A stretch of DNA of 64,000 nucleotides, from contig CAVYKI010000006.1 of assembly GCA_963769025.1 (NCBI GenBank), positions 544,001 through 608,000 on the forward strand, in the 5' to 3' direction. Positions 50,824 through 54,547 of the stretch are shown piece by piece. The notes beneath the pieces were generated by a model. It was not told the DNA's origin. It made no database searches and saw only the letters and a program-made list of their open reading frames with translations. The DNA comes from an uncultured Verrucomicrobiae bacterium (GTDB lineage: Bacteria > Verrucomicrobiota > Verrucomicrobiia > Chthoniobacterales > Chthoniobacteraceae). The position numbers were made by a program, and so were the translations under genes. Every line of letters starts with the position of its first letter. The first letter of the stretch is position 1.

Positions 50824-51755
50824 GTGACCGTGAACGTCCTCCGCTCGATTCCCGATCTCGCGACGGTGCGCGGGCCGGTCGTCCTCGCGGCGGGCGTCTT
50901 CGACGGCTTCCACCTCGGCCATCGCGCCGTCATCGAGCGCGCCATCGCCGATGCCACCGCGGCGGGCGGCACCCCCGTCGTGCTCACCTTCGATCCGCAT
51001 CCCGCGACCATCCTCCGCCCGGGGAATGCGCCGCCGCTGCTCACCTCCACGCGGCACAAGGTGCGGCTCATCGGCGAGGCCGGCGTGCGGCACATGCTCG
51101 TGCTGCCATTCACGCCCGACTTCGCAGCCAAGGCGCCGGAGGCCTTCATCGCGGAACTCGCCGCAGCCTGTTCGCCGCTGCGCGAGATCTGTGTCGGCGA
51201 GGACTGGGCATTTGGAAAGGAACGCGCGGGGAATCTCGCGCTGCTCGCATCGCTCGGCGCGAGCCTCGGCTTCACCGCCACCGGCATCCCGGCGGTGACG
51301 GTCGATGGCCGCGCCGTCAGCAGCACCGTCATCCGCGCCGCCGTGGAGAGCGGCGCGCTCGACGTCGCCGCGCGGTTGCTCGGCCGCGACTTCAGCGTGT
51401 TCGGCACCGTCATCGAGGGACGCAAGCTCGGCCGCACGCTCGGCTTTCCCACCGCGAACGTCCGCCCCGAGAGCGAGCAGCTCCCGCCGAACGGCGTCTA
51501 TGCCGTCCGCGTCGCGCTTGACGGGAGCCGGCGCGAGGGCATCGCGAATGTCGGCGTGCGCCCCACGGTCGCCGGGGAAAATGCACAACGCCTCGTGGAG
51601 GTGCACCTCTTCGACTTCGCCGGCGAACTCTACGGCCGCGACCTCGACGTCTCCTTCCTCCGCTTCATCCGCCCCGAACAAAAGTTCCCGGCCTCGAAGC
51701 CCTGCGCGCCCAGATCGCCAGCGACGTCGCTGCCGTGCGGGGCGACCGCGGGTGA
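50824..51755 (+). CDS. ribF: Bifunctional riboflavin kinase / FAD synthetase (frameshift near 51690)
   Basis: FDGFHLGH, TFDPHP, VSSTVIR, GFPTAN and EVHLFDF; tail LEALRAQIASD in the shifted frame. Confidence 0.93.
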
Positions 51756-51859
51756 GGAAGCGGCGTACATTTCAGGTTGACGATCATTCGATCCGGAGTC
51801 TTCCTCCCCGCGCGATGAATGTGGCCCCCCTAATGATGCCTTCTGCTGCGGTCGGACGC

Positions 51860-51914
51860 GAGCGTCGGAGCGTCGGAGCGTCGGAGCGTCGGAGCGTCGG
51901 AGCGTCGGAGCGTC
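51860..51914. repeat. 8-bp tandem repeat (GAGCGTCG) x about 7
   Basis: Six perfect copies plus a 7/8 copy. Confidence 0.9.
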
Positions 51915-51988
51915 TAGTACAGGCGGGGTCTGGCGTTTCGGCAAATGCGAGGCTGAAAACTTTGCCCGGTCGGCGTGTGCGGGCGCAT

Positions 51989-52324
51989 CCGTGCAAGGTG
52001 CAGGGGGCGGGTGCCAGTGTGGCAGGCGGCTTTTGCACGGTGCAAATGAAGGGTGCCAGTGGCAGTCGGGCCATGCAGCCATGCACAGTGATGTCTGCCT
52101 GCCTGTCCGCGGTTTCGTGCAGGCTGCACGGGGCGCGGCGGAGTGTCCCACGGGGTGCGTTCGCGGTGCATGGGGCAGGCCGGAGTCTGGCAAGGGCTTC
52201 GAGCATGATGCACGGGGCGGCTGCCACACGCCGGGCCGGTTCGTGCGCGGTGCAAATGCGGACTGCCAGCGTGGCAGACGGCCCGTGCACGGTGCAGGAG
52301 GCGTGTGCCAGCAGGGAAACCGGC
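51989..52324. repeat. Degenerate tandem array of 8 x 42-nt units containing phased inverted repeats
   Basis: Units start at 51989, 52031, 52073, 52115, 52157, 52199, 52241 and 52283. TGCA sits at unit positions 11-14 in 7 of 8 units. Confidence 0.85.
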
Positions 52325-52352
52325 TCATTTTCAGCCCTTTACACATCCGAGC

Positions 52353-53358
52353 ATGAAAACCGCCTATTGGGATTCCGGCCTCAAATGGGATGACCCGAAC
52401 CTCCGCTGGGGCGACCCCGCGTACCTGCTCGAGCCGGGCGATCCCGGCTTCGTGAATGACCCGAATTCCGCTTCCTACGAACCACCAAAGACCAAGACCA
52501 AAAAACGCAAGTATATGGCATCCAACCCCACTCCAGACGCCATCGGCGAACTCATCGCTTCCGGCGAAGACCTCTGCGACGGCCTGAACCAGCGGCATCT
52601 CGCGGAAAATTGCCCCGTTTTCGCCTCCGCGCCTCGGGCCGCGCCTGAAATGCCTCAGCAATGCGAAGGGCTTCATCGCCCGCGCCATCAAGGTGCTCTC
52701 CATCGCGCTCGGCAATGCATGGAGCGACGCGTGGAGCGCGACCGGCCTGCCGGACAATACCGTGGGCGTCCCGCGCACGCAGGACGTGCGCTTTGCCGCC
52801 CTAGGCGGGCTGAACGCATATTTCACTGCGAACCCGGCAAAGGAAAACGCCCCGCTGAACGTCACCGCCGCCATCGTCGGGACGCTCTATCAGGCGCTCT
52901 CCGACGCCCGCACCGCCGTGGGCAATGCGCTCACGCTCACCAAGAACAAGGTCATGGCCCGCGACGCTGCGAAAGTCACCTTCCGCGACCGCTATCGCGC
53001 CACCATCGGCGAACTCGAACAGCTCCTCTCCGACGACGACGCGAAGTGGTATGACTTCGGCCTGAGCCGCCCGAGCGACCCCGCGCAGCCCGGCCAGCCC
53101 TCCAATGTCCACGCCACCCCGCTCGGCGCAGGCCGCGTGCTCGTGCAGATCGACGGCGCACGGCGGGCGAATTCATTCAACTACTACAAAAAGGTCACCG
53201 GCACCGACGCGAAGCCCGTGAAGGTGATCAATACCGAAGGCACGCAGCACACCATCGAGGGCCTGCCCGCCGGCGCGACGGTGGAAATCACCGTCACCGG
53301 CGTGAACGACGCCGGCGAAGGGCAGGCGAGCGACCCGGTGAGCGTGGTGGTGACATAA
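52353..53358 (+). CDS. Helical-domain plus C-terminal fibronectin type III-like protein, interrupted by a frame change at about 52590-52657
   Basis: N part MKTAYWDSG.../MASNPTPD...DGLNQ; C part SNAKGFIARAIK...WYDFGL...PGQPSNV...TIEGLPAGATVEITVTGVNDAGEGQASDPVSV (FN3-like). Confidence 0.7.
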
Positions 53359-53413: not shown

Positions 53414-54547
53414 ATGAACACTCCGCGCACACTCATTCTCGCGCTCTTCGCCACCTGCATCGCGGGCGCGCAGGAGAATCCCGCCCCAGCTCCCCCAGCT
53501 ACGGATGCGCCGGCGACACCGGCGCAGACGGAAATCCAAAAGTGGATCGCCACGACGGATGCGCAGTGGCAGGCGGCATATAAGCGAGAGGTCAGCGACG
53601 TGCATGAGGCGGACGTCAGAAAGTTGATGCTCCAGTTTCTTACCTCGATCGAGGCGGCCATTACCAAAGCGAGCGGTGCCGGGGATCTGGATGGCTCGGT
53701 GGCGCTTCGCAACGAGCAGAAGCGCTTTGGCGACACGAACGTATTCCTTGAACAGGACGATCCCGGCGATCATGCCTCCGTGAAGCAACTCCGGGCGGCG
53801 GCTCGCATACAAAAGGCGAAGCTTGAAAAGGACAGCACCGCCCGCACCAAGACGCTGCACGCCAAATACGATCAGCTCCTCGCGCAGGCGCAGGCACAGC
53901 TCACGCAGCGCCAGCGCTTCGACGAAGCGCTGCTGGTGAAAGCCAAGCGGGATGAAGTCGCAGCGACCTGGCTGCCGTCCGTGCCTGCCGCTGCGCCTGC
54001 TGAAGGTCCTGAAAAGCCGGCGGCTCCCATCGCGACCCCAAACTCACCGGCGGCGCCTGCCGCCGCAGGGACGGGCACGAATCTTTTCACTAACGGCAAC
54101 TTTGAGCAAGGCACTGACGGCTGGACCTTGAGTGCTCACCGAAAGAAAGGACAGATGGCTGTGGACGCGAAGGAACTCCATAAAGGGAAGCCAAGTCTGC
54201 GAGTGGAAAATGTCGAAGCCGACGACACGCAGGTGACACAGAAGGTGAGCGTCAAACCGAACACACGTTACCGGCTTGCCGGCTACATTAAGACAAAAGA
54301 CGTGGAGACGGAGAAGCGCGGCGGCAAGGATGGAGCAACGCTGGCGGTCACCGGCGGATTCGCCAAGACACCACCGGTGTTCAAAACCAAGACATGGACC
54401 CGAGTCGACATGACCTATGTCACTGGAGCCAAACAAACCGAGATCGCTGTGGGACCGCGTCTCGGCCATCATAGCGCGGTGGTTTTGGGAACGGCGTGGT
54501 TTGCAGAATTGACGCTCACGGAACTTGGCCGCAACGCCAAACAATAG
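53414..54547 (+). CDS. Secreted coiled-coil protein with a C-terminal carbohydrate-binding (CBM4/9-like) domain
   Basis: Signal peptide; helical region; NLFTNGNFEQG...QKVSVKPNTRYRLAGYIKT...GTAWFAEL. Confidence 0.75.
   Translation: MNTPRTLILALFATCIAGAQENPAPAPPATDAPATPAQTEIQKWIATTDAQWQAAYKREVSDVHEADVRKLMLQFLTSIEAAITKASGAGDLDGSVALRNEQKRFGDTNVFLEQDDPGDHASVKQLRAAARIQKAKLEKDSTARTKTLHAKYDQLLAQAQAQLTQRQRFDEALLVKAKRDEVAATWLPSVPAAAPAEGPEKPAAPIATPNSPAAPAAAGTGTNLFTNGNFEQGTDGWTLSAHRKKGQMAVDAKELHKGKPSLRVENVEADDTQVTQKVSVKPNTRYRLAGYIKTKDVETEKRGGKDGATLAVTGGFAKTPPVFKTKTWTRVDMTYVTGAKQTEIAVGPRLGHHSAVVLGTAWFAELTLTELGRNAKQ

Follow-up and report, generated by a model that had tools for sequence, protein, structure and literature searches.

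Period-locked palindromic repeat arrays of variable sequence precede an FN3-protein gene family in Verrucomicrobiota

REP/BIME, BOX and MIRU elements are palindromic, hairpin-capable intergenic repeats that sometimes stand in tandem and occur as many dispersed copies of one sequence, and the F-plasmid centromere sopC is made of 43-bp repeats with inverted repeats; arrays of the sopC and type II parC kind can serve as the operator of the adjacent operon, bound by its product. The array described here consists of eight contiguous, in-register units of 42 nt and lies directly in front of a gene of a family that we call F0 (a helical bundle with a C-terminal FN3 domain), in a 64,000-nt stretch of DNA, hereafter the window, from an uncultured Verrucomicrobiae bacterium (assembly GCA_963769025.1, contig CAVYKI010000006.1, positions 544,001 to 608,000 of the forward strand). 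It belongs among the bacterial intergenic palindromic minisatellites, and is set apart by its locked period and by its linkage to one gene across a phylum. Among published systems, type III toxin-antitoxin (TA) loci are described as tandem RNA repeats preceding a toxin gene (PMC12283969, PMC8860590), with a Rho-independent terminator between repeats and gene as a criterion (PMC12283969), and BrickBuilt of Porphyromonas gingivalis as an intergenic 23-nt minisatellite/MITE that has a leader, a tail and promoter activity (Klein et al. 2015, PMC4596501).

Autocorrelation of the window array gave self-identities of 0.475, 0.451 and 0.467 at lags of 42, 84 and 126 nt, against a lag-42 mean of 0.291 (standard deviation 0.023) in 300 mononucleotide shuffles, for which the maximum over all lags and shuffles was 0.394; the eight contiguous 42-nt units that an earlier note had read from the DNA are thereby confirmed. 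Each unit carries a dyad TGCAC-G-GTGCA and a dyad TGCCA-N3-TGGCA spaced about 21 nt apart, and lag 21 is not elevated (0.314) because these two dyads are unlike in sequence. Seven of the eight units have the second TGCA in register, and in unit 3 it is offset by 1 nt, just as the note had it. Comparing the consensus unit with its own reverse complement gives 67% identity, a value reached by 2 of 1000 shuffles. With units only about 47% alike, the array goes undetected by Tandem Repeats Finder (TRF), even at a score of 30. No Rfam family matched it at E up to 5, and blastn of the array with its flanks against its own 5.3-Mb genome (hereafter the source genome) returned only the self-match and no second copy. 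Terminal inverted repeats flanking the array were not found, all inverted repeats in 51780-52420 lying inside the array or extending into the gene. The last unit ends at 52324, 28 nt before the ATG at 52353, as also reported earlier, and two observations support this ATG as the true start of F0: orthologs conserve the N-terminal residues, and in contigs from relatives the similarity breaks off immediately upstream of 52352.

The same arrangement recurs at most other loci of the family. A protein search of 40 relatives found F0 in 13 of the 24 genomes of the genus, frequently in multiple copies, and at the first 12 loci an array with a period of 41 or 42 nt lay upstream of F0 in ten, with a single unit at locus L016 and none at one truncated locus. 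A wider sample, with one genome per species, added 80 further F0 loci, mostly from Verrucomicrobiota; the few bins with F0 from elsewhere are labelled Planctomycetota, Armatimonadota, Abditibacteriaceae, Methylococcaceae and Klebsiella, with binning errors possible, and arrays also precede F0 in bins with the first four of these labels. A census by autocorrelation (lags 15-63, 252-nt windows, threshold self-identity 0.45) took in the 64 loci that have 700 nt or more of upstream DNA; 54 of the 64 pass the threshold upstream of F0, the best lag being 42 in 45 of them and 41 in nine, and three further loci peak at lag 42 under 0.45. Downstream control regions reached 0.45 in 6 of 74 cases, none of them at lag 41 or 42. 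In the source genome an array stands before each of the four F0 genes, at loci on large contigs, and neither there nor in the 80 loci was there an array with a period of 40, 43 or 44.

Sequence and copy number are both free to vary within this frame. Consensus units of different paralogs are unrelated in sequence and retain the period, and the number of units ranges overall from 1 to about 10, differing even between close relatives (one at L016 versus six at its ortholog L015, and elsewhere 3.5 versus 9.6). Array and gene therefore form one conserved unit with a locked period of 41-42 nt, because arrays of the same period and unrelated sequence precede relatives of F0 in many bacteria. The earlier note had staked its proposal in advance on periodic arrays recurring beside homologs of the downstream gene, and at 54 of 64 loci, with a period of 41 or 42, they do; what supports its further suggestion, that the array acts with the adjacent gene, is this co-occurrence.

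Within the ortholog group of the window, selection reaches below the level of the period. The array is orthologous, unit by unit, to that of the congener G012, and between the window and G012 the motif positions, those shared by the units, are 88% identical and other array positions 64%, compared with 75% at fourfold-degenerate positions of the adjacent gene, 76% over the whole array and 84% in the leader. Because the motif positions exceed both the fourfold-degenerate and the non-motif positions, they are under purifying selection in this ortholog group, with the rest drifting. Consensus units from the wider set hold 53 perfect palindromes with arms of at least 5 nt, against 19 per shuffled set, and odd centres dominate, the central gap being 1 nt in 22 of the 53 and 3 nt in 13. 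The pair of palindromes some 21 nt apart, as described in the earlier note, is present in the window, TGCCA-N3-TGGCA being exact only in units 1 and 7 and degenerate in the others, but it does not generalise, since the centres are 21 nt apart in only 4 of the 15 arrays with two perfect palindromes. GANTC lies at or beside the axis in 23 of 54 dyads and has a density of 0.56 per 42 nt in arrays versus 0.16 in the loci overall; we rejected it as a defining feature, 17 of 52 arrays being without it. Across paralogs, then, only the period and an odd-centred palindrome persist.

We tentatively prefer to read the array as a platform that acts in cis from the promoter or leader of the F0 cassette and whose dyad sites are in helical phase, although we hold even this for possible rather than probable. 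The array would act as double-stranded DNA, presenting dyad-symmetric binding sites every four helical turns (42/4 = 10.5 bp) within or against the cassette promoter or leader; a putative cassette-specific dimeric or oligomeric factor would occupy these sites cooperatively and so set the transcription of the fibre-like genes, and expansion or contraction by whole units would alter the dose of sites and leave the helical phase unchanged. The restriction of the period to 41-42 nt is consistent with such a platform, 42 nt being four turns of B-DNA, as is the helix-turn-helix (HTH) gene found upstream in 15 loci. The linkage to F0, the constraint on motif positions, the surplus of perfect palindromes over shuffled sets and the GANTC at many dyad axes also speak for it. 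The complementarity of the dyads often leaves just one central base, too few for the loop of a hairpin, and this counts against selection for an RNA structure. After correction for base composition, fold stability does not differ between the strands (mean z -3.9 sense versus -3.3 antisense, p 0.07; in the window array -2.2 and -2.3), and double stem changes within arrays comprise 5 compensatory (Watson-Crick) versus 4 non-pairing events. Single stem mismatches of the G.U type amount to 38 distinct events versus 31 of the A.C type, and an asymmetry in a first count (22 versus 10) was not upheld in this broader one.

Several observations weigh against the platform. F0 has no recognisable nucleic-acid-binding domain in Pfam, PADLOC, NCBIfam and structure searches, and the HTH gene is absent from most loci, the window included; in 21 loci the array palindrome did not occur outside the array, for example before the HTH gene. 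Promoter-like pairs, sought in 52 loci, were found neither upstream of nor inside the arrays, and three were found in the gaps. With no more than 23-28 nt separating the array from the ATG, a promoter must lie in or before the array, so the array is probably transcribed and a role as RNA is possible; in 35 of 52 arrays the minimum free energy (MFE) is lower for the sense than for the antisense strand (Wilcoxon p 0.002). The 21-nt spacing of dyads occurs in only 4 of 15 arrays, as above, and whole-unit self-complementarity (z of at least 2) in only 22 of 52 consensus units, and perfect dyads could come from template-switch correction of quasi-palindromes and not from selection. The window array in particular may no longer be in use, because the F0 copy behind it is broken. 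Promoter-like (sigma-70) and terminator-like sites numbered zero each in 51600-52600, and a sigma-54 promoter was rejected because its GG-to-GC spacing, measured by eye, is 12-13 nt and 10 is required.

The same short gaps place the array in the transcript if the promoter is upstream, and thereby lend some weight to a different account, unlikely in our estimation yet deserving serious attention, in which transcription covers the array, together with F0 or ahead of it, the product is perhaps cut to unit-length RNAs, and each unit is bound by its cognate F0. The logic would be that of type III TA systems, not their class; the unit length would be set by the geometry of an RNA-protein assembly, and the private sequences would result from co-evolution with each paralog. 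This account agrees with array plus F0 as the minimal unit across phyla, with the HTH gene and the fibre-like gene F1 optional, with the lower sense MFE in 35 of 52 arrays, and with the sufficiency of a single unit at L016, where the ortholog L015 has six. Like toxIN, cptIN and tenpIN, the locus has tandem short direct repeats immediately upstream of a protein gene, a repeat sequence specific to the cognate protein and a unit length roughly fixed per family; privacy of sequence per paralog at a fixed period also agrees with published type III systems. It differs from them in that the window array has no Rho-independent terminator before the gene (a terminator between repeats and gene was present in 7 of 51 loci), in that the arrays here have 5-10 units of 41-42 nt built on dyads, and in that F0, a helical bundle with FN3 and not a ToxN-type endoribonuclease, matches no ToxN, CptN, TenpN or other PADLOC model. 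The pairing moreover carries no strand-specific signal, the dyads reach a 1-nt centre, and no Rfam family was matched. A more general form, that array and F0 make up a self-contained nucleic-acid/protein module whose units, as RNA or as phased DNA, are bound one-to-one by cognate F0, the geometry locking the period at 41-42 nt, we consider doubtful; if true, it would be a new repeat-plus-protein class, with the logic of type III TA or ParR-parC and unrelated to either, in Verrucomicrobiota and other phyla.

Repeats elsewhere in the source genome bear on an explanation in which no dedicated partner is needed. The array could be a fast-evolving hairpin minisatellite of the BrickBuilt or MIRU kind that sits in 5' intergenic DNA, supplies or modulates a promoter and behaves as a variable number of tandem repeats (VNTR), its period persisting through descent and concerted evolution, or through a tolerance, between cis elements, of none but units of whole helical turns. 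TRF arrays of at least 2.5 copies in the source genome have a period of 42 in 14 rows, of 21 in 24 and of 41 in one, with none at 40, 43 or 44; several precede unrelated genes (mfd, a prepilin peptidase, an oxidoreductase), and one 21-nt unit recurs at three loci. To this may be added the differing unit numbers in close relatives (1 versus 6, 3.5 versus 9.6), an overall array identity to G012 (76%) that equals that of fourfold-degenerate sites (75%), and the precedent of promoter activity in BrickBuilt (PMC4596501). Opportunistic insertion, however, would hardly explain the retention of arrays with unrelated sequences before one gene family, across phyla, at 54 of 64 loci; motif positions are conserved beyond the neutral level, the window array is single-copy in its genome, and terminal inverted repeats were not found around it. 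On balance we regard this explanation, too, as improbable but a genuine competitor.

BrickBuilt is the published element that comes closest. It matches the present array in several respects: intergenic tandem repeats without spacers near gene starts, copy number variable between strains, dyad symmetry allowing long stem-loops, a conserved leader before the repeats, and nothing in Rfam. BrickBuilt is one 23-nt sequence family over 19 loci, with a leader and a tail that end in inverted repeats; the present array, by contrast, has a 41-42-nt unit, a sequence private to its locus and a tie to one gene family across phyla. Privacy of sequence and gene linkage likewise separate the present arrays from REP/BIME, BOX and MIRU.

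Two observations in the source genome concern the mobility and kinship of such repeats. The array at C6:653922-654040, before an F0 paralog and with an IS5-like transposase gene beside it, is DNA-homologous to the array at C9:1222853-1223053 before mfd, and arrays may thus move or be copied without the gene. The recurrent 21-nt unit forms arrays of 17-19 copies at C9:210326-210705, C10:337034-337400 and C13:22037-22428, a dispersed family unlike the private 42-nt arrays.

Since 42 nt correspond to 14 codons, the array might instead encode 14-residue repeats, either prolonging F0 at its N-terminus or forming an upstream open reading frame (ORF). Most frames of the arrays are open, the frame is continuous with F0 in L010, L018, L020 and two loci of the source genome, and a conserved ATG precedes the array in some loci. 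But a repeat peptide cannot be encoded at a 41-nt period, which 9 of the 54 arrays have; unit variability is flat over the codon phases (43.1, 46.8 and 47.9), stops occur in the gene's frame ahead of the gene in 22 of 31 arrays, and the synonymous share gives no sense-specific excess (509 of 1670, 459 expected, in open sense frames; 471 of 1479, 393 expected, in open antisense frames). Neither translation of the window array matches a Pfam family. We attach almost no probability to a coding repeat. The earlier note had named mostly synonymous variation in one frame, the mark of a simple 14-aa repeat protein, as a refutation of its reading, and this reading survives, with no codon-position bias, no synonymous excess and 41-nt arrays in existence.

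Equally far-fetched is a CRISPR-like array or a plasmid centromere/iteron cluster, to which the dyads inside tandem units and the Cas9 gene adjoining the cassette in eight loci, with a fragment in a ninth, might point. The entire unit recurs here and unique spacers are absent, so the note was right to set CRISPR aside. At the loci where cas9-cas1-cas2 adjoin, these genes have a genuine CRISPR of their own, whose 36-nt repeats recur every 66 nt, and the 42-nt array is therefore a different thing. The window neighbours are ribF and a CBM protein, and a profile made from the Cas9 proteins that neighbour other loci found no match in the source genome, in a search limited to Cas9, with other cas families not searched. 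As to a centromere, the likeness to the sopC type lies in tandem repeats of about four helical turns with an inner dyad per unit; here, though, the loci are chromosomal and a genome has several of them, genes for a partition ATPase or a ParB/ParR-like protein are absent, F0 lacks a known DNA-binding fold, and partition or replication genes are not among the recurrent neighbours within 3 kb.

The array does not fit the definitions of type III TA, of BrickBuilt/REP and of plasmid centromeres, and is neither coding nor CRISPR. The claim of the earlier note that it represents an undescribed system holds in so far as we found no description of such period-locked arrays in the literature, and must be tempered by the publication of BrickBuilt, a related element (PMC4596501). 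That the array may change in sequence but not in period implies that something reads the spacing, be it DNA geometry or the size of a unit RNA, and dozens of independent sequences at one period amount to a natural experiment on how repeat geometry controls bacterial genes. The source genome favours periods of 21 and 42 nt in other intergenic arrays too, and the F0 cassette may offer the best way into a wider class of palindromic minisatellites with locked periods, most of it undescribed.

The composition of the cassette was obtained by clustering the neighbours of the 80 loci, counting as recurrent those within 3 kb. The recurrent order is an XRE/Cro-type HTH gene (15 loci), the array, F0, and F1 (28 loci), the last encoding a collagen-like protein with PHROG tail-fibre matches; the HTH gene, directly upstream and on the same strand, belongs to family F3 in nine loci and to F10 and F11 in three each. 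Everywhere the minimal unit is array plus F0, with the HTH gene and F1 optional. The source genome holds seven F1 homologs, each after an F0-like gene or another gene with a W-rich N-terminus, and most of these preceding genes have a 21- or 42-nt array in front of them. F0, F1 and the HTH protein matched no PADLOC or NCBIfam model of a known system. Cassette products (the FN3 protein and, elsewhere, the collagen-like, tail-fibre-like protein) occur in as many as twelve copies in a genome, a number suggestive of fibres of a variable surface or phage-like kind.

Some cassettes have further neighbours. The Cas9 homolog of the eight loci (fragment in the ninth) is divergently upstream and matches type II-C Cas9 structures at E 1e-8, and in three of these loci, for which wider stretches were taken, it is part of cas9-cas1-cas2 with the separate CRISPR described above. 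These complete type II-C-like CRISPR-Cas systems, at L106 (1-4861), L107 (8852-15163) and L108 (12862-18225), have up to 20.6 units and are divergent to the HTH-array-F0-F1 order; their position beside the cassette may reflect either shared ancestry of position or a functional link. No partition or replication genes were seen among the recurrent neighbours within the 3 kb. An N6/N4 methyltransferase gene occurs in three loci, and so does a four-helix-bundle (23S-IVP/Avd-like) gene.

Features of the window around the array, with coordinates counted from its first nucleotide.
Feature	Position	Strand	Basis and remarks
ribF	50824..51780	+	Pfam FAD_syn + Flavokinase; housekeeping gene, upstream bound of the cassette, outside the element
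Microsatellite, 8-nt unit x 6.9	51860..51914	.	TRF; directly 5' of the array leader
Pre-array leader, ~74 nt	51915..51988	+	84% identity to G012
Array, 8 x 42 nt	51989..52324	.	two dyads per unit; unit-by-unit ortholog of the G012 array
Spacer, 28 nt, last unit to start codon	52325..52352	+	no room for a promoter plus leader
F0 gene, helical bundle + FN3	52353..53358	+	tblastn, AlphaFold2, Foldseek, VIA; broken in this assembly
Downstream gene: signal peptide, coiled coil, CBM_4_9	53414..54547	+	Pfam

F0 begins with a W-rich extension, continues as a long helical bundle and ends in an FN3 domain, and its copy in the window is interrupted. By tblastn with the G012 ortholog, 52353-52592 corresponds to its residues 1-81 and 52657-53352, in a different frame, to its residues 129-370, leaving 64 nt (52593-52656) where the ortholog has 141 nt; the copy is about 77 nt short and has a frameshift. 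This is either a pseudogene or an assembly error, and since ribF is also frameshifted, decay of F0 is not distinguishable from an error of assembly. The frame change in ribF falls in a C/G run near the 3' end, at about 51690-51700 of the window; the shifted frame gives a typical RibF C-terminus, which suggests homopolymer indel errors in the assembly.

The AlphaFold2 model of F0 has a pLDDT of 89.8, and in it the FN3 domain is recognised by VIA (Z 14.6, rmsd 1.3 over 88 aligned residues, on the model, to an integrin beta4 FN3) and by Foldseek (E 7e-6); the Pfam fn3 match is weak, at 23.2 bits below the cut-off of 25, and beyond FN3 nothing matched in Pfam, PHROGs, PADLOC or NCBIfam. Modelled separately, the helical domain has a pLDDT of 96.9 and a best VIA Z of 8.8, in the range usual for helical bundles, with no Foldseek match at E of at most 0.001. 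DUF6261, to which a protein atlas gave a lead with a feature score of 0.80 amid otherwise unnamed clusters, was rejected, being absent from the 25 most-matched of the 46 Pfam families found with 58 helical domains and having no match in the source genome. An Rfam match to ctRNA_p42d inside the F0 coding region (52837-52888, minus strand; 23.7 bits where the gathering score is 50, E 0.041) was taken as chance.

The W-rich extension (three W residues, 5-7 residues apart, then a basic KTK..R..M) also heads otherwise different proteins that follow arrays, as seen in the source genome at C2:176596-178161, C13:20945-21871 and C10:392919-393524, and in L017 and L020; short forms of F0 begin just past it.

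Around the array, the spacing to the gene is much the same elsewhere, with gaps of 23-24 nt between array and ATG in L081 and L084. Within the leader, a conserved loop-like motif is enclosed by the arms of a small inverted repeat (51940-51945 / 51962-51967), and the leader motif GCGAGNCTGAA is restricted to the close orthologs L009-L012, L021, L023 and L024. The downstream CBM_4_9 gene stands where 28 other loci have F1, and has orthologous neighbours in L011, L012, L023 and L024. Contigs from four public runs held fragments of relatives, and the array past its first ~100 nt was covered by traces in one run only.

The 8-nt microsatellite before the leader is also present in G012 and recurs in further genomes of this genus, frequently where a contig ends; its summed contig depth was 616 in one metagenome run from sediment. 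Microsatellites of 4-8 nt occupy the equivalent position in other loci, with CAGA, GCAG and 7-nt units preceding other arrays. In L046 and L076 inverted microsatellites flank the array. Four-helix-bundle genes lie in or beside cassettes at L046 (3989-4447), L049 (1697-2071) and L077 (3328-3813), and in the source genome at C13:20167-20877, and 8-nt purine-rich microsatellites flank these genes and also bracket some arrays in inverted orientation.

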